From assembly GCF_003334335.1 (NCBI RefSeq), contig NZ_QOWQ01000017.1: 64,000 bases of DNA. One strand, written 5' to 3'. Below the pieces are notes generated by a model. The model did not search any database. It had not been told where the DNA came from and worked only from the letters and a program-made list of their open reading frames with translations. The position numbers and the translations under genes were made by a program. The DNA comes from Escherichia coli. GTDB taxonomy: Bacteria > Pseudomonadota > Gammaproteobacteria > Enterobacterales > Enterobacteriaceae. Below are positions 39,796 through 49,719 of the stretch, piece after piece (position 1 is the stretch's first letter; each line of letters begins with the position of its first letter).

Positions 39796-40884
39796 ATGCC
39801 TCACAATCCTATCCGCGTGGTCGTCGGCCCGGCTAACTACTTTTCACATCCAGGAAGTTTCAATCACCTGCACGATTTTTTCACTGATGAACAACTTTCT
39901 CGCGCGGTGTGGATCTACGGCAAACGCGCCATTGCTGCGGCGCAAACCAAACTTCCGCCAGCGTTTGGACTGCCAGGGGCAAAGCATATTTTGTTTCGCG
40001 GTCATTGCAGCGAAAGCGATGTACAACAACTGGCGGCTGAGTCCGGTGACGACCGCAGCGTGGTGATTGGCGTCGGTGGCGGTGCACTGCTCGACACCGC
40101 GAAAGCCCTCGCCCGCCGTCTCGGTCTGCCGTTTGTTGCCGTTCCGACGATCGCCGCCACCTGCGCCGCCTGGACACCGCTCTCCGTCTGGTATAATGAT
40201 GCCGGACAGGCGCTGCATTATGAGATTTTCGACGACGCCAATTTTATGGTGCTGGTGGAACCGGAGATTATCCTCAATGCACCGCAACAATATCTGCTGG
40301 CGGGGATCGGTGACACGCTGGCGAAATGGTATGAAGCGGTGGTGCTGGCTCCGCAACCAGAAACGTTGCCGCTAACCGTGCGACTGGGGATCAATAATGC
40401 GCAAGCCATTCGCGACGTCTTGTTAAACAGTAGCGAACAGGCGCTGAGCGATCAGCAAAATCAACAGTTAACGCAATCATTTTGCGATGTGGTGGATGCT
40501 ATTATTGCTGGTGGTGGGATGGTTGGTGGTCTGGGCGATCGTTTTACGCGTGTGGCGGCAGCTCATGCCGTGCATAACGGTCTGACCGTGCTGCCGCAAA
40601 CCGAGAAGTTTCTCCACGGCACCAAAGTCGCCTACGGAATTCTGGTGCAAAGCGCCTTGCTGGGTCAGGATGATGTGCTGGCGCAATTAACTGGAGCGTA
40701 TCAGCGTTTTCATCTGCCGACTACACTGGCGGAGCTGGAAGTGGATATCAATAATCAGGCGGAGATCGACAAAGTGATTGCCCACACCCTGCGTCCGGTG
40801 GAGTCCATTCATTACCTGCCAGTCACGCTGACACCAGATACGTTGCGTGCAGCGTTCAAAAAAGTGGAATCGTTTAAAGCCTGA
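39796..40884 (+). CDS. ybdH: Glycerol-dehydrogenase-family hydroxycarboxylate dehydrogenase
   Basis: 362-aa ORF, iron-containing ADH family (GVGGGALLDTAKA). Confidence 0.88.
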   Translation: MPHNPIRVVVGPANYFSHPGSFNHLHDFFTDEQLSRAVWIYGKRAIAAAQTKLPPAFGLPGAKHILFRGHCSESDVQQLAAESGDDRSVVIGVGGGALLDTAKALARRLGLPFVAVPTIAATCAAWTPLSVWYNDAGQALHYEIFDDANFMVLVEPEIILNAPQQYLLAGIGDTLAKWYEAVVLAPQPETLPLTVRLGINNAQAIRDVLLNSSEQALSDQQNQQLTQSFCDVVDAIIAGGGMVGGLGDRFTRVAAAHAVHNGLTVLPQTEKFLHGTKVAYGILVQSALLGQDDVLAQLTGAYQRFHLPTTLAELEVDINNQAEIDKVIAHTLRPVESIHYLPVTLTPDTLRAAFKKVESFKA

Positions 40885-40893
40885 CGTACAAAT

Positions 40894-41091
40894 TTAGCAG
40901 CAGCGCGCGCCGCCTTTTCCACCGTAGCGCGCGTCCTGCCGCTCACGGAAAAACTCTTCGTAGGTCATCGGCGTTTGATCGGGATGGTTAACCCGCATAT
41001 GTTCGACATAGTTGTCGTAATCAGGCATACCAATCATCAGCTTCGCCGCCTGACCTAAATATTTTCCGGCTTTTGCCAGTGAATCAAACAT
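40894..41091 (-). CDS. ybdD: Small DUF466 protein encoded downstream of cstA
   Basis: 65-aa [35 protein letters not shown]... Confidence 0.85.
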
Positions 41092-41124
41092 CTTGGCCTC
41101 CGCTAACCATGTTGCTGAAAGAGT

Positions 41125-41159
41125 GCCGGATGCGGCGTGAACGCCTTATCCGGCCTACA
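41125..41159. repeat. REP (repetitive extragenic palindromic) element
   Basis: GCCGGATGCGGCGTGAACGCCTTATCCGGCCTACA, the same sequence as at 63059. Confidence 0.85.
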
Positions 41160-41184
41160 AATGCTATCAACGCGCTCGGTCAGT

Positions 41185-41235
41185 CCCCTCGCCCCACCGG
41201 GGAGAGGGTTAGGGTGAGAGGGAACCCTGGGCACT
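41185..41235. repeat. GC-rich intergenic repeat (box C-like), copy 1
   Basis: cccctcgccccaccggggagagggttagggtgagaggg; near-identical to the units at 48594-48633 and 48658-48699. Confidence 0.6.
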
Positions 41236-41273
41236 AAGCCAACATTCGCCAACATCCCCCCCTCACTCTGACT

Positions 41274-43379
41274 TTAGTGTGCGCCTTTTGCCTGCGCCAC
41301 GATCTCCTCGACATTTTCCGGCATTGGTTCATACGGCGTTTCTTTCGCCGTTGGCTTCGGATCTTTCAATGCCGCAAGTGCCGTCTTAATCGAGAACAGT
41401 GCCAGAACCACCACGACCACCATAAAGAAGATGGTTAACCCGGCATCCAGACGGTTGTTGAACACCAGTTGCGCCAGCTGTGACTCAGTATACTGCGACG
41501 GAATATTGCCGCTGTCGATCATTGCCTGGAACTTATTAGCAATGGCCAGGAAGCCGACTTTCGCATCCGGGCTAAACGCTTTCTGCCAGCCTGCGGTCAG
41601 GGTACAAATCAGCAGCCAGGCCGTTGGTACCAGCGCCACCCAGGCGTAACGTTGACGTTTCATCTTGAACAACACCACGGCACAGAGCATCAGCGCCATC
41701 CCTGCCAGCATCTGGTTGGCAATACCAAACAGCGGCCACAGAGTGTTAATGCCGCCCAGCGGATCGACCACGCCCTGATGGAGGAAGTAGCCCCACGCCA
41801 GTACGCACAGCGCTGTTGCCAGCAGGTTAGCAGGCAGTGAATCGGTCCGCTTCAGGCCAGGAGACACCACGCCCAGCAGATCCTGCAACATAAAGCGCGC
41901 AGCACGCGTACCTGCATCCACCGCCGTCAGAATAAACAGTGCTTCAAACAAAATGGCGAAGTGATACCAGAACGCCACATCCATCATGCCGCCCAGCGCG
42001 CCGTGCAGAATGTAGGCCATCCCCACCGCCAGCGTCGGCGCACCGCCCGCACGGGAAATGATCGACTGTTCACCCACTTCGCTGGCAATCTGGTTTAGCG
42101 TATCTGGTGTAATGCTAAAGCCCCAGCTACTCACCACCTGCGCGGCAGAAGCGACCACATCCGCCGTCCCTGCCGGAGCCAGCACCGCCATCGGGCTGTT
42201 CATGGCAAAATACACGCCCGGATCGATGATACAGGCGGAAACCAGCGCCATAATCGCCACGAAGGATTCCATTAACATCCCACCGTAGCCGATAAAGCAC
42301 GCCTGCCCTTCGTTCGCCAGCATCTTCGGCGTGGTCCCAGAAGAGATCAGCGCATGGAAGCCAGACACCGCGCCACAGGCGATGGTGATAAACAGGAACG
42401 GGAACAGGTTACCGGTCCATACCGGGCCAGTGCCATCGACAAATTTGGTCAGCGCAGGCATGGTCAGCGTCGGGCGCATAATCAAAATGCCTACCGCCAG
42501 ACCGACGATAGTCCCGATTTTCAGGAAGGTAGAGAGGTAGTCACGCGGGGCCAGCAGTAACCACACCGGCAGCACCGCCGCCACAAAACCGTAACCCACC
42601 AGCATCCAGGTCAACTGCACGCCGGTAAAGTCAAAGTACGGTGCCCAGGTCGGACTTTCTGCCACCCAGCCGCCAGAGATAATGGCGAAAATCAGGAATA
42701 CCAGACCGATGACCGACACTTCGCCAATACGCCCCGGACGCAGATAGCGCAGGTAGATCCCCATAAACAGCGCCAGCGGAATGGTGAACGCAACGGTATA
42801 TGTTCCCCACGGGCTATGAGTCAGGGCTTTCACCACGATCATCGCCAGCACTGCAAGGATAATGACCATGATCATAAAGCAGGCCACCAGCGCAATCACC
42901 CCGGCGGTTGGCCCCATCTCTTCTTTGACCAGCTCACCCAGCGAGCGACCGTCACGGCGCGTAGAAACAAACAGCACCATGAAATCCTGCACCGCACCGG
43001 CGAGAACCACCCCAGCGAGCAGCCAGATCATCCCCGGCAGGTAGCCCATTTGCGCCGCCAGTACCGGCCCCACCAGCGGACCTGCTCCGGCAATGGCCGC
43101 AAAATGGTGACCGAACAGCACTTTCTTGTCCGTCGGCACATAGTCCAGCCCGTCGTTATGGCGCACCGCTGGCGTCATACGCGTCGGGTCAACCGCCAGC
43201 ACATTTTTGGCGATATACAGCCCATAAAAACGGTAAGCGATCAGATAGATACAGACCGACGCCACCACAATCCACAGCGCGTTGATCTGTTCCCCACGAT
43301 TTAAAGCAATGTATCCCAGAGCAAATGCTCCCATTACAGAGAGCACTGTCCAGACGAGGTATTTCCCTGATTTGTTCAT
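41274..43379 (-). CDS. cstA: Carbon starvation protein A (CstA-family peptide/pyruvate transporter)
   Basis: 701-aa polytopic membrane ORF, recognised. Confidence 0.95.
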   Translation of the reverse strand: MNKSGKYLVWTVLSVMGAFALGYIALNRGEQINALWIVVASVCIYLIAYRFYGLYIAKNVLAVDPTRMTPAVRHNDGLDYVPTDKKVLFGHHFAAIAGAGPLVGPVLAAQMGYLPGMIWLLAGVVLAGAVQDFMVLFVSTRRDGRSLGELVKEEMGPTAGVIALVACFMIMVIILAVLAMIVVKALTHSPWGTYTVAFTIPLALFMGIYLRYLRPGRIGEVSVIGLVFLIFAIISGGWVAESPTWAPYFDFTGVQLTWMLVGYGFVAAVLPVWLLLAPRDYLSTFLKIGTIVGLAVGILIMRPTLTMPALTKFVDGTGPVWTGNLFPFLFITIACGAVSGFHALISSGTTPKMLANEGQACFIGYGGMLMESFVAIMALVSACIIDPGVYFAMNSPMAVLAPAGTADVVASAAQVVSSWGFSITPDTLNQIASEVGEQSIISRAGGAPTLAVGMAYILHGALGGMMDVAFWYHFAILFEALFILTAVDAGTRAARFMLQDLLGVVSPGLKRTDSLPANLLATALCVLAWGYFLHQGVVDPLGGINTLWPLFGIANQMLAGMALMLCAVVLFKMKRQRYAWVALVPTAWLLICTLTAGWQKAFSPDAKVGFLAIANKFQAMIDSGNIPSQYTESQLAQLVFNNRLDAGLTIFFMVVVVVLALFSIKTALAALKDPKPTAKETPYEPMPENVEEIVAQAKGAH

Positions 43380-43499
43380 AGTTGTTATCCGTGTGCGTGT
43401 CCATAGAGATGTTACATTTTGTTTCTATAACATCTTTGTACAATTTAACAACACAGCAACCATGTAAATCGGAGTTGAAACCAATATTTAACTTAACAA

Positions 43500-43515
43500 T
43501 GTTAACTCGATCACT
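43500..43515. promoter_or_regulatory. Candidate CRP site upstream of cstA
   Basis: tgttaactcgatcact resembles TGTGA-N6-TCACA; cstA is known to be cAMP-CRP dependent. Confidence 0.3.
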
Positions 43516-43559
43516 CCGTTAACCGAGTTTTCCTGCAATCTCATCTAATTCTGTCGGGT

Positions 43560-44721
<1,162 letters not shown>

Positions 44722-44722
<1 letters not shown>

Positions 44723-45579
44723 TATTTCACCTCGCGGGAGAGTAGCTTCCACCAGGCGTCGATGGTCGGGTTTTTCGCCAGCATGACAAAGTCGATATCA
44801 CCATGCACTTTGCGCCAGCGCGCCGCCAGCGCCATCATGCGCACCGAATCCAGACCGTAGTCGATCAGGTTGTCGTCATCGAACGGTTCATCGGACTCGT
44901 CCAGCAACGGCAGGATCACCTCACGCAGCGCCGCTTTGCTGGCGGGGATAGGTGCTGGCAGTAATTCTTCAGTCATCACCACCCGGCCAGAACGTCCGGC
45001 CACATATTTCAGCGACATCAAATGCTCGTCACGGCTGAAATCGGCCAGCGCATCCGCCACCATAAACGGTTTAATATCGCGCATAAATGCGTCGGTTGCG
45101 GTGGTCATACAGCCAATGTGGGCATATACCCCGGTAATAATCAGCTGGTTACGTCCACTCTCTTTCAGCATTTGCTCCAGCGGAGAACGATGAAACGCGC
45201 TGTAGCGCCACTTCACCAGCACCGTGTCGTCGGCATCTGGCGTCAGGCGATCCACCACCTTTTGCTGTTCCGGCGAGCGGGTCAGGCCCGGCCCCCACAT
45301 ATCATTCAACAGCGCCCGATCTTCATCGCTCTGCTCTTTCGGCTGGGCGGTGTAATAAACCGGGATATTGTGCTGTTTGCAGTAGTCGCGCAGCGCAGCA
45401 ATATTCGCGATCACCTGCTCCATCATCGGGCAGTTCTCGCCCCAGAAGCTGACAAAATAGTCCTGCATATCATGGATTAACAACGCGGCACGTTGCGGTT
45501 CAAAGGCCCAGTCAACTTTATTCTGCGGAATATCGTGAGACTCCGGCAGTGCGTAAGCCTGTAATTTTGGAATAGCCAT
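44722..45579 (-). CDS. entB: Isochorismatase / aryl carrier protein
   Basis: 285-aa ORF. Confidence 0.95.
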
Positions 45580-45592
45580 CGTGTTCTCTCCT

Positions 45593-47203
45593 TCAGGCTG
45601 ATGCGCGTGACGCCAGCCACTGACGTAATTGTTTTTTATCGACTTTCCCGACCGCCGTCAGCGGAAGTGAATCCACACACTCCACGCGATCCGGTAATTT
45701 AAATTCGGCAATACCCTGTTCACGCAGGAAACGACGCACCTGCACCGCGCGCAGCGGCTCTTTTACCACCAGATAAGCGCAGCTTTTTTCGCCCATCAGC
45801 TCATCTTCCATGCTCACCAGTGCGGCGTAGATCACCGCCGGGTGGCGCAGCAGCAGGTTTTCGATCTCTTCGGCAGCGATCTTCTCGCCGCCACGGTTAA
45901 TCTGATCTTTCTCGCGCCCCTGCACGGTGATGTAACCCTCTGGATCAATAGAGATCAGATCGCCGGAACAGTAAAAACCGTTGGCATCAAAGGCGCTGGC
46001 ATTGTGCTGTGGACTTTTGTAATAGCCGCGGAAGGTGTACGGCCCGCGCGTCATCAGGCGTCCGACTTCCCCTTGCGGCAGTGGATTTCCTTCGGCATCG
46101 GCAACCCATACTTCGTCATCCGGACACATTGGGTAACCCTGGGTATGGATAATTTTCTCCGCGCTATCATCAAGTCGGGTGTAGTTCACCAGCCCTTCCG
46201 CCATGCCAAACACCTGCTGCAACTGACAGCCAATCTCAGCGGGAATACGCGCCGCAAGGGTGGCAGAAAGACGTGCGCCGCCGACCTGTAACAGTTTCAG
46301 CGAGGCAAGCTGCGCCCGGCTTTCGCCTTCGATCAGCGCCTGCAACCACAGGCTGACTGCGGGTGGCACCAGCGCGGTAACGTTAACCTGATGTTTTTCA
46401 ATCAATGGGAAACAGAGCGTGGCGCTGGGATCGGCCGCCAGAACAACCGTTCCTCCGGCAAGAAAGACGCCCAGCGATCCTGGCGAACTCATGGCGTAGT
46501 TATGAGCCGCCGGGATCGCGCACAGGTAGCGTGTCTGTTGTGTGAACTGACAAATCTCGACGCTACGACGCACGCTGTAGTAGTAGTCGTTATGAGTGCG
46601 CGGGATCAGTTTCGGTGTGCCGGTGGTGCCACCGGAAAGCTGGAAATAGGCCACTTCATCAGCAGGTGATGGCGTGGCAGTAAAATCCTCAGCCGGATGG
46701 TTAATCGCATCCTGCAAGTTATGCTCACCGCTGTCGTTGAGCAGTTGCACCACGCGAATGGAGGAATGTTCTGTGACGAAAGTATTGAGGAAATCATCCC
46801 CGCTAAACAGCGCATGTTGGCGATCGGCAATCAGCAATGCGGGTTCAATCTGGCTGGCATAGGCGTTCAGTTCACTACGCTGATGGCTGAACAACGCCAG
46901 CACCGGCGCAACGCCCAGTTTCAGCAGCGCGAAAAAGGTAATATACAATTCAGCGACGTTACCCAGTTGTACCAGCGCGGTTTCACCAGGTTTAATGCCC
47001 TGACGGCGTAAACTACACGCGAGGTTATCCGCCGCCTGATTCAGCTCCCGATAACTCAACTGTCGCTCGCCGTCGATAACCGCGATGCTGTCACTCGCAG
47101 CATGTCGCGTCAGAATGTCGGTCAGCGGCAAATCCTGCCAGTAGCCTTTTTCCCGATAGCGACGGGCAAACTCTTCCGGCCAGCGGGTGAATGGAATGCT
47201 CAT
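45593..47203 (-). CDS. entE: 2,3-dihydroxybenzoate-AMP ligase
   Basis: 536-aa ORF, adenylation-domain motifs (SGGTTGTPK). Confidence 0.95.
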
Positions 47204-47212
47204 CCTCGCTCC

Positions 47213-48388
47213 TTAATGCAATCCAAAAACGTTCAACATGGTAGAAAGTTTGACGCCTGTTTCGCGCCACTCACCCAACGGTGACGACGCAGGCACAATC
47301 CCCGCTCCGGCAAACAGACGCACCTGATTTTCCCGCAGCTTCGCGCAGCGGATGGTCACCACCCATTCGCCGTTACCTTCGCTGTCACACCAACCCACAA
47401 TGCCGCCAAACAGTTCGCGGTCGAACGGTTCCAGTTCAGCAATAACCTGGGTCGCGGCCTGATGCGGGAAACCGCTCAGCGCGGGGGTCGGATGCAGCAG
47501 ACAGGCCAGAGTCAGTGCGTTTTCTTGCGAATTCGCTTTACCTTCAAAGGGAGTTGCGAGATGCCACAGCGTCGGCGTGGTGATCAGCTGTGGAGAAGAA
47601 GGAACGTGTAACTCACTACTGCGTTCGCGCAGTACCTCTTTCATCGCCTGAGTCACCAGTTCATGTTCATGGCGATCTTTTTCTGACGCCAGCAGACGAT
47701 TACCTGCTTCGCGATCGAGCACTTCATCCGGCTGACGACGCGCGGAACCGGCTAACGGAATGGAGCTAAAACGCTCGCCGTCTTTACGTAGCAGCAGTTC
47801 CGGGCTGGCCCCCAGCAGGACGCCACCATCAGCCAGCGGAACATGGAAGTTGTAACTAACCGGGTTTTGCGCAATCAACCGTTCCAGCAATACGCCACTA
47901 TCAATGGCGGCGTCAGTGGTGATATCAATCAACCGTGACAACACCACTTTGTCGACCTGCGGCGTGGCGGTAAGTGCGGCGGCGCGGGCAACCATCTGTT
48001 CAAACGTGGTTTGCTCCGGAATTGCCTGGCGTTCCACCACATTCAGCGACTGGCTGCGGGTGAAACGGCGTGCGGAAGCTTGTTTTTCCTGACGGGAGAA
48101 CGACTGCCAGGATTCAGGAATATACAGCGACGAAGGCTGACGTGGATCGAAGGGAATCGCCCCGACCATCACCGGATTTTTGATGCCCTGCGCTTTGGCA
48201 TCGGCAAACAGCGCGGCGAGTTTTTGCTGGAAGGGACTGTCGGGCGAATCCCCGTTCACAGCCGGTTCATCGAAGCGGGCGAAACATCCTGACGTCGTAA
48301 AACTGCGGTACGGCGACATAAAGAAAAAGCGATTGGGCGCAAGTGTTGCCATGGTCTGCTGTACTTCCTCAGCCAGTGACGTATCCAT
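47213..48388 (-). CDS. entC: Isochorismate synthase
   Basis: ORF 47213..48400; start at 48388 gives 391 aa [11 protein letters not shown]... Confidence 0.93.
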
Positions 48389-48401
48389 ATCATCCTCCAC
48401 A

Positions 48402-48437
48402 AAATGATAAAGGCTTTAATAATGATTATCATTTATA
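48402..48437. promoter_or_regulatory. Fur box in the entC/fepB divergent promoter region
   Basis: aaatgataaaggctttaataatgattatcatttat resembles GATAATGATAATCATTATC. Confidence 0.75.
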
Positions 48438-48593
48438 TTTTCGGTCGCTAACCTAAAAGCAAACGCGCACTATGTCAACTCTTGAGGTAACGCAATCTGC
48501 AACTCGGGGTTGCATCTGGTTGTGGTTACAATGAAAATGAGAAGCATTATTGATGGATTCGCATAAGCGCAATGTGATGTCCTGCGCCGTTCT

Positions 48594-48699
48594 GCCCCCT
48601 CTCCCTTCCAGGGTGAGGGCTGGGGTGAGGGTTAATGTTCGCACCAGTGCTGGCTGTTCCCCTCACCCTAACCCTCTCCCCAAAGGGGCGAGGGGACGG
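48594..48699. repeat. Inverted pair of GC-rich box C-like repeats forming a long palindrome in the fepB 5' leader
   Basis: Unit 48594-48633 (gccccctctcccttccagggtgagggctggggtgagggtt) and unit 48658-48699 in opposite orientation, separated by about 24 nt. Confidence 0.7.
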
Positions 48700-48762
48700 A
48701 TTGTGCGCTTTGTCGAATTTGTCATTACGCCCTTAACCTTATTAATAACAGGAAGCTGATTT

Positions 48763-49719
48763 GTGAGACTCGCCCCGCTCTACCGCAACGCCCTTCTATT
48801 AACAGGACTTTTGCTTTCAGGAATAGCCGCAGTTCAGGCCGCTGACTGGCCGCGTCAGATTACTGACAGCCGTGGCACACATACACTGGAAAGCCAGCCG
48901 CAGCGTATTGTTTCCACCAGCGTCACCCTGACCGGCTCACTGCTGGCGATTGATGCTCCGGTGATCGCCAGCGGCGCGACCACGCCGAATAACCGCGTCG
49001 CGGATGACCAGGGCTTTTTACGCCAGTGGAGCAAGGTGGCGAAAGAACGCAAACTGCAACGGCTCTATATCGGCGAACCGAGCGCCGAAGCCGTTGCCGC
49101 GCAAATGCCGGATCTGATTTTAATTAGCGCAACCGGCGGGGATTCGGCGCTGGCACTGTATGATCAGCTTTCCACCATCGCCCCGACATTAATCATCAAT
49201 TACGACGACAAAAGCTGGCAGTCGCTGTTAACGCAACTTGGCGAAATTACCGGGCATGAGAAACAAGCGGCAGAGCGGATTGCGCAGTTTGATAAGCAAC
49301 TGGCGGCGGCGAAAGAGCAAATCAAATTACCGCCGCAGCCGGTCACTGCCATTGTCTATACTGCCGCTGCACACAGTGCCAATCTCTGGACGCCAGAATC
49401 AGCACAAGGGCAGATGCTGGAACAACTCGGCTTTACGCTGGCGAAGTTACCCGCAGGGTTAAATGCCAGCCAAAGTCAGGGTAAACGCCATGACATCATT
49501 CAGCTTGGTGGGGAAAATCTGGCTGCAGGGTTAAATGGCGAGTCACTATTCCTGTTCGCCGGTGATCAGAAAGATGCCGATGCTATTTATGCTAATCCGC
49601 TGCTCGCGCACCTGCCTGCAGTACAAAACAAGCAGGTTTATGCGCTGGGAACCGAGACGTTCCGTCTGGATTACTACAGCGCCATGCAAGTGCTGGATAG
49701 GCTTAAGGCGCTGTTTTAA
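48763..49719 (+). CDS. fepB: Ferric enterobactin periplasmic binding protein
   Basis: 318-aa ORF, GTG start, signal peptide. Confidence 0.93.

Follow-up and report, generated by a model that had tools for sequence, protein, structure and literature searches.

A catalogued BoxC repeat pair at the core of a 186-bp block in the fepB leader of about half of Escherichia coli genomes

Introduction

The control region between the divergent genes entC and fepB of Escherichia coli contains two GC-rich repeat units in opposite orientation, which raise the question of whether the palindrome they form serves the iron-uptake gene fepB or is an ordinary repeat transcribed with it. An earlier note on a 64-kb stretch of DNA (the window, here always at its full length) had proposed that the pair folds in the fepB leader and could affect mRNA stability or translation. 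The repeat family, both fepB copies and the long structured fepB leader are already in the literature, and the only increments of the present analysis are a 51% insertion polymorphism, its polarity and a composite subfamily of the repeat.

Repeat copies in the window

Searching the window with the pattern GGGNGAGGGNNNGGGNGAGGG at no more than 2 mismatches gave exactly three matches, compared with 0.01 copies per window expected by chance from shuffles, and three or more matches occurred in none of 100 shuffles. The three-copy repeat claimed by the earlier note is real and non-random. The features concerned are the following.

41114-41155, minus strand: REP element beside the third copy; partial match to naRNA4 (REP-derived), 38.2 bits, gathering score 59.5
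41160-41275, plus strand: third copy, a degenerate composite in the cstA-ybdD spacer
41200-41220, plus strand: match 1 to GGGNGAGGGNNNGGGNGAGGG, 1 mismatch
entC, minus strand, ending at 48400: divergent from fepB
48611-48631, plus strand: match 2 to GGGNGAGGGNNNGGGNGAGGG
48660-48680, minus strand: match 3 to GGGNGAGGGNNNGGGNGAGGG
48763-49719, plus strand: fepB coding sequence, GTG start, 318 aa

The pair at 48 kb lies where it had been placed, between the Fur box (48533-48551) and the fepB GTG at 48763. Its inner inverted repeat has arms at 48591-48631 and 48660-48700, each of 41 nt, 76% complementary and 28 nt apart. The entC-fepB control region (48300-48900) is the E. coli K-12 version, with 701 compared bases identical to those of MG1655. 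Only the copy on the minus strand has the core exactly as quoted in the earlier note, gggagagggttagggtgaggg; its plus-strand counterpart is GGGTGAGGGCTGGGGTGAGGG, and the 41-kb copy, carrying a 1-nt insertion, reads GGGTGAGAGGG.

The third copy is made up of a type A unit (41185-41222, with the 1-nt insertion), spacer-like sequence and the remnant of an inverted second unit. It matches the G-half of the pattern with 1 mismatch and fails the strict consensus expression because of the 1-nt insertion. The description of a REP next to this copy is borne out by the sub-threshold naRNA4 match and by the high repetition of the region, which has a median of 37 megablast places per E. coli genome and is highly repeated in every genome. 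The cstA-ybdD spacer (41050-41330 compared with L095) is itself variable: in strain 1579 it is 70 nt shorter, another small hairpin replaces the REP, and the BoxC remnant is collapsed.

REP/BIME elements resemble the fepB pair in being GC-rich, intergenic, palindromic enterobacterial repeats that often form inverted pairs. However, their consensus is unrelated to that of BoxC, their usual place is at 3' ends, RAYT transposases mobilise them, and they lack the triplex-type mirror architecture of BoxC. The name RU-3 of Delihas 2007 (103 bp) was considered for the pair and rejected, as it denotes REP/BIME sequence and not BoxC.

Identity with BoxC, PIT and TMECO

The published TMECO consensus is 5'-CCCTCNCCC-N3-6-GGGNGAGGG-N3-GGGNGAGGG-3' (Holder et al. 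2015, PMC4666352), and a regular expression for it matches 48597-48631 on the plus strand and 48660-48694 on the minus strand. The plus-strand fepB unit is base for base entry #8 of Table 1 in that paper (MG1655 624,676-624,641), the minus-strand unit is likewise entry #7 (MG1655 624,579-624,614), and the supplement gives fepB and entC as their neighbours (PMC4666352). The same source equates TMECO with the BoxC of the 1990s, studied by Bachellier et al., and with the PIT element of Hoyne and Maher, from 2000 and 2002. Because the copies match #7 and #8 and the names are equated, the tentative name box C was right, and the unit is a standard, well-catalogued repeat.

MG1655 has 23 TMECO copies, including five inverted pairs; type A units have TTA as the second loop and type B units a CCG-like second loop, and pairs are always A+B and inverted (PMC4666352). 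The fepB pair follows this arrangement, with TTA (and a mismatch) in the minus-strand type A copy and CTG in the plus-strand copy, catalogued as type B. In a 2008 survey, BoxC was listed among the known stem-loop families of E. coli, with a 56-bp unit and 32 copies. Copies elsewhere in the genome confirm the dispersed family that the earlier note had supposed: megablast of the fepB intergenic region finds a median of 6 places per E. coli genome, and all BoxC copies examined are intergenic.

Rfam 15 contains no family for the repeat. Applied to 40500-49500, it gives for the hairpin only spurious microRNA-precursor matches far below threshold, and at the gathering threshold it has no matches at the sister loci or the E. 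whittamii locus. The MG1655 RefSeq annotation has no BoxC repeat feature at any locus examined.

The repeat unit itself shows no difference from BoxC/PIT/TMECO: the fepB pair has the same C/G/G three-block architecture, the inverted A+B arrangement, an intergenic position and variation between strains. What is added here is that the pair sits inside a 186-bp block with extra inverted arms, that three such pairs make up a composite subfamily of about 150 nt, and that the strain difference at fepB is an insertion rather than a deletion.

The 186-bp block

The fepB feature is an inverted BoxC pair (type B plus type A) at the core of a 186-bp imperfect palindrome, whose parts are as follows.

48548-48571, no strand assigned: left outer arm, 24 nt, 71% complementary to 48704-48727
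48550-48735, no strand assigned: 186-bp insertion with the repeat pair as its core, from alignments of filled and empty alleles
48597-48632, plus strand: type B BoxC/PIT/TMECO unit, TMECO #8, CCCTCTCCC-TTCCA-GGGTGAGGG-CTG-GGGTGAGGG-T
48633-48658, no strand assigned: spacer between the units, 26 nt, with its own small hairpin CCAGTGCTGG; conserved at ygfF-gcvP and alx-sstT
48659-48694, minus strand: type A BoxC/PIT/TMECO unit, TMECO #7, CCCTCGCCCC-TTT-GGGGAGAGGG-TTA-GGGTGAGGGG, with one mismatched triplet
48704-48727, no strand assigned: right outer arm, similar to the sequence that borders the ygfF and alx composites on the right (consensus TTGTCAT)

The junctions read GCATTA/TTGATGG on the left and CGCCCTTA/ACC on the right, with a TTA repeat on both sides of the block, and the boundaries are ambiguous by these 3 nt. 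An inverted-pair palindrome was correctly recognised in the earlier note, but its size of about 100 nt was too small, as with the outer arms included the palindrome measures about 175 nt.

The pairs at fepB, ygfF-gcvP and alx-sstT are 80 to 84% identical over about 152 nt, spacer and flanks included. Beyond the BoxC units they have in common a spacer of 26 to 29 nt and, on the right, about 40 nt of flanking sequence. In eight single copies of type A, the shared sequence outside the unit is limited to some 12 to 15 nt upstream of it, and some of them also carry the first 10 to 25 nt of the spacer. The extended outer arms are found only at fepB; the other pairs fold over the core of about 100 nt only.

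Two of these sister loci show further variation. At alx-sstT, some strains (E. coli P31_YH1_02.21, L011:150-800) have a GC-rich insert of about 430 bp that replaces the BoxC composite. The ygfF-gcvP composite (L006:423 compared with L012 and L013) lies at the exact edge of a larger presence/absence region that includes ygfF; in strains such as IHE3034 and NT1W22, which have neither ygfF nor the repeat, bglA adjoins gcvP.

Distribution and polarity

Leaders were compared between strains by searching 5426 complete E. coli genomes for the intergenic region with megablast. The entire block is present in 2755 of these (51%) and missing as a unit from the rest, so that the comparison of fepB leaders suggested in the earlier note separates strains with the block from strains lacking it. 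Its left (46-nt) and right (45-nt) parts each occur in exactly 2755 genomes and at the fepB locus only. The filled allele is uniform, the left arm being at least 99% identical in 2690 of the 2755 genomes, which could reflect recent spread or purifying selection. Among sampled loci the only length classes seen were 121, 307 and 301 nt, corresponding to the empty allele, the filled allele and the filled allele with a 6-bp deletion.

The 6-bp-deleted form, found in about 1 in 30 to 40 sampled genomes, is exemplified by E. coli RM6927 (L003:518-615), in which the type A unit lacks CCTAAC. With these 6 bp one G-block is gone, and therefore the TMECO pattern and the triplex potential are lost while the hairpin is kept.

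Outgroup comparison used fepB loci from 80 other Enterobacteriaceae species, and TMECO was found upstream of fepB in none of the 80. In about 70 of them the distance from the Fur-box motif AATGAGAAGCATT to the fepB start is 25 to 29 nt, as in the empty E. coli allele, and this short empty leader occurs in E. albertii, two other Escherichia lineages, Citrobacter, Salmonella, Enterobacter and Klebsiella. Since the short leader extends across the outgroups, it is ancestral and the K-12 state is an insertion. Next to the junction, empty E. coli alleles have the ancestral ACTTCA, and filled alleles and E. whittamii have the derived ACCTTA; the empty alleles therefore are not excision products. The presence/absence polarity at fepB is one of insertion, not deletion. 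E. whittamii carries the same insertion with the same junctions and ACCTTA, its centre collapsed to a single short hairpin, which points to one old insertion that would be common to the two species by descent or recombination.

These results bear on the proposal that the block is a hotspot of DNA instability, in which a triplex or cruciform stalls replication and the strains with an empty site are deletion products. A deletion-prone reading was favoured for TMECO loci generally by Holder et al. (PMC4666352), who reported that TMECO loci vary more between strains than control loci and that TMECO oligonucleotides form a stable intrastrand purine-motif triplex in vitro. Internal deletions of pairs do occur, namely the 6-bp variant at fepB, the collapsed E. 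whittamii version, and a 75- to 76-bp deletion between direct CCCTCTCCC repeats that collapses the alx-sstT sister pair; the suggestion in the earlier note that the repeat is a substrate for recombination or deletion is upheld by these cases. However, the empty state is ancestral, being common to E. albertii, the two other Escherichia lineages and about 70 of the 80 species, the empty E. coli alleles have the ancestral junction haplotype rather than the insert-linked one, and no triplex protection was detected in vivo (Holder et al., PMC4666352). The instability of the element is real, but it leaves the main presence/absence polymorphism unexplained. Deletion polarity is largely refuted for that polymorphism, and the hotspot proposal as a whole is very improbable.

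Other insertions are found around fepB. The fepB leader of Citrobacter amalonaticus S646 has an 88-bp insert (L032:1378-1465) at the corresponding site, preceded by GCATTAA and followed by AATAACAGGA. This insert was considered as a relative of the E. coli block and rejected as unrelated, its local alignment score falling within the shuffle distribution. The stretch from the Fur box to the AU-rich tract may be one that tolerates insertions or attracts them. At the other end of the gene, a single type-B-like BoxC/TMECO unit lies within about 75 nt 3' of the fepB stop in eight of nine species of Enterobacter, Lelliottia, Leclercia and Silvania (at 2472-2504 in each of L034, L042, L052 and L061, and at L071:2532-2564, L075:2457-2489, L078:2512-2544 and L090:2481-2513). 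In Leclercia adecarboxylata NCTC13032 (L022:2957-2991) the unit is about 500 nt downstream of the stop. This 3'-end unit is a different, apparently old BoxC insertion.

Promoter, Fur operator and leader control elements

Whether the block could affect fepB depends on its position relative to the elements listed below.

48510-48538, plus strand: inferred fepB promoter, TTGCAT-N17-GAAAAT, conserved in 14 of the 16 outgroup species displayed, in seven genera
48527-48557, no strand assigned: Fur operator, DNase footprint of Brickman et al. 1990 as tabulated in PMC2189734, Table 3
48533-48551, no strand assigned: core 19 bp of the fepB Fur box, matching the consensus at 15 of 19 positions in both alleles
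48736-48762, plus strand: ancestral leader part present in both alleles, with the AU-rich tract TTATTAATAAC, the Shine-Dalgarno sequence AGGAAG and the RyhB site; conserved in the outgroup leaders displayed

The 14 species with TTGCAT-N17-GAAAAT include E. albertii, two other Escherichia lineages and members of Citrobacter, Salmonella, Enterobacter, Klebsiella and Leclercia. A scan with the consensus promoter misses this element, the -35 hexamer of which matches at 3 of 6 positions. In the work of Hook-Barnard et al. 2007 the fepB leader is reportedly 217 nt long, and from this length and the conservation of the promoter we infer a transcription start near 48546. With that start, the insert would begin at about +5, and the ancestral and filled leaders would measure 31 and 217 nt, respectively.

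If NC_000913.2 and NC_000913.3 are offset by 777 bp, as the mapping of the footprint assumes, the insert supplies the last 8 bp or so of the Fur footprint, so the two alleles could bind Fur differently. RyhB pairs at the fepB Shine-Dalgarno sequence, its sole favourable site in the 5' untranslated region (PMC4666370), and the positive effect of the leader is credited, in the account of Hook-Barnard 2007 given in PMC7769764, to an AU-rich translational enhancer adjoining the Shine-Dalgarno sequence. The enhancer, the Shine-Dalgarno sequence and the RyhB site are all downstream of the insert and present in both alleles.

Translation from within the block is a further conceivable link to fepB. 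A 69-codon open reading frame with a TTG start (48550-48759, plus strand) runs through the entire insert and reaches its TGA stop 3 nt short of the fepB GTG, an arrangement that would suit a small upstream reading frame coupled to fepB translation. It has no Shine-Dalgarno sequence, however; its start would be about 4 nt from the 5' end and inside the stem, and the frame is a by-product of the palindromic repeat and absent from half of the strains. The likelihood of such coupling is close to nil, and the frame is probably meaningless.

Predicted folding of the leader RNA

The long stable stem-loop claimed by the earlier note for the fepB leader is recovered by folding, and in a larger form.

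48551-48725, plus strand: predicted single long RNA hairpin of the fepB leader, about 175 nt

The 106 nt named in that note fold at -64.4 kcal/mol (z -5.1). The whole 186-bp block gives -91.3 kcal/mol (z -6.77, about -6.8), with none of 200 shuffles as stable, and the leader of the empty allele gives -9.8 kcal/mol (z -0.1). Folding of the full leader is dominated by the same 48551-48725 hairpin.

Partition function calculations put the unpaired probability of the Shine-Dalgarno sequence at 0.33 in the filled allele, versus 0.37 and 0.19 in two empty alleles, and that of the start codon at 0.39, versus 0.34 and 0.44. An intrinsic terminator or attenuator was rejected: the base of the stem is AU-rich and followed by UUACGCCCUUAACC, and there are no terminator-like sites in 48380-48800. 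Accessibility is similar in both alleles and there is no terminator, and the hairpin is therefore predicted to be insulated from translation initiation. The influence on mRNA stability or translation that the earlier note had envisaged is not favoured by these models, in which accessibility is unchanged and no terminator is present, nor by the lack of the block in about half of E. coli and about 70 of the 80 species.

Two other structures can be drawn from the same sequence. The sense strand at 48611-48631 (plus strand, GGGTGAGGGCTGGGGTGAGGG) contains a canonical motif of four G-tracts, GGGUGAGGGCUGGGGUGAGGG, which might form an RNA G-quadruplex in the leader and block ribosomes or nucleases; a quadruplex was also considered, as a DNA competitor, by Holder et al. 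(PMC4666352). Yet a fully complementary C-rich arm follows 30 nt downstream in the same RNA, so the motif is expected to be masked in a hairpin of -64 to -91 kcal/mol. Holder et al. set out to exclude a quadruplex, and circular dichroism and NMR indicated a triplex in vitro (PMC4666352). A quadruplex acting in the leader is scarcely credible. The DNA triplex, for its part, is irrelevant to the fepB RNA, because purine-motif triplexes do not form in RNA (PMC4666352).

A more serious proposal is that the hairpin has been co-opted as a cis-regulator of the fepB mRNA, either as a 5' stabiliser against RppH and RNase E or as an RNase III substrate that yields a processed leader, in which case carrier strains would control enterobactin uptake differently at the posttranscriptional level. 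Stem-loops near the 5' end are known to stabilise E. coli mRNAs, and the hairpins of ERIC and Correia/NEMIS elements change the stability of mRNAs or undergo RNase III cleavage, an analogy that lends the proposal some support. The fepB hairpin is predicted to be very stable and to form autonomously, beginning some 5 nt from the inferred 5' end; if that end is right, the hairpin has only about 5 unpaired nt before it, a distance near the range in which such stem-loops stabilise mRNAs, and a real effect on half-life is possible. By analogy it may be likened to the stabilising stem-loop of the ompA 5' untranslated region, a stable hairpin near the mRNA 5' end, although the fepB hairpin is far longer and has about 5 unpaired nt before it. 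The high uniformity of the filled allele across 2755 genomes and the retention of the outer stem in E. whittamii despite its collapsed centre would also fit co-option.

Several observations weigh against it. The block is absent from 49% of E. coli and from about 70 of the 80 other species of Enterobacteriaceae, it includes none of the known control elements, and predicted accessibility of the ribosome-binding site is unchanged. The E. whittamii hairpin has a z of only -1.4, not significant against shuffles, for a segment folded without the first 12 nt of the left outer arm. PIT elements had neither promoter nor terminator activity and no in vivo effect or function in earlier tests (PMC4666352). 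A regulatory role of the hairpin through 5'-end protection, RNase III processing or altered Fur binding is possible, but co-option as a whole is rather unlikely.

Mobility of the composite

The block also has traits of a miniature inverted-repeat element (MITE): it is 186 bp long with only mechanical open reading frames, it is present or absent between strains, and its empty site is ancestral. Its ends consist of arms of 24 nt that are 71% complementary, with TTA at both junctions; the arms are known from fepB only and the junctions from one pair. In these respects it may be compared with ERIC/IRU, YPAL and Correia/NEMIS, which are likewise small, non-coding, multi-copy imperfect palindromes, variable between strains, inserted in untranslated regions and co-transcribed as a long hairpin, and a 3-bp direct repeat (TTA) borders the fepB insert. 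The difference is that the terminal arms at fepB do not recur in other E. coli copies, the other pairs being palindromic over the core of about 100 nt only. A full MITE model, with the outer arms as shared termini, is unproven for the same reason. We know of no partner transposase or autonomous insertion sequence for BoxC. TMECO elements show no association with transposons, phages or plasmids (PMC4666352).

The broader claim that BoxC A+B pairs are the core of a mobile palindromic element of about 150 to 190 bp that duplicates TTA, and that one of its insertions altered the decay or processing of fepB mRNA, is improbable. If it were true, carriers of the block, about half of E. coli, would differ from the remaining strains in their regulation of enterobactin uptake.

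Most probable history of the block

The block is most probably a derived BoxC composite insertion in the fepB leader, a selfish or passenger sequence with little or no effect on FepB output. The insertion would date to an ancestor common to about half of present-day E. coli and to E. whittamii. It would have placed the block at the border of the Fur operator, some 5 nt past the point where fepB transcription starts, and would have lengthened the fepB leader from 31 to 217 nt. Transcribed with fepB, the block would fold alone into one long hairpin that leaves the AU-rich enhancer, the Shine-Dalgarno sequence, the RyhB site and the GUG start free, so that its effect on FepB would be at most a modest change in fepB mRNA decay. 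As DNA, the block is somewhat unstable locally.

The identity of the catalogued repeat, the boundaries of the block, its frequency, the direction of the change and the fold prediction come directly from the analyses above. Folding in vivo would follow the prediction, and near-neutrality is suggested by the dispensability of the block across strains together with the fold predictions. Because it is a catalogued repeat carried by only about half of the strains, the block is ordinary and probably dispensable.

Significance

As a discovery, the fepB BoxC pair matters little, and its value is limited to two modest points. The insertion polarity at fepB, as judged from alleles and outgroups, qualifies the published view that TMECO loci differ between strains through deletion by instability, at least for the fepB locus. 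In addition, the near 50:50 presence and absence of a 5'-untranslated-region hairpin in an iron-uptake gene provides a natural experiment, with and without the element, on the effects of BoxC hairpins in E. coli.
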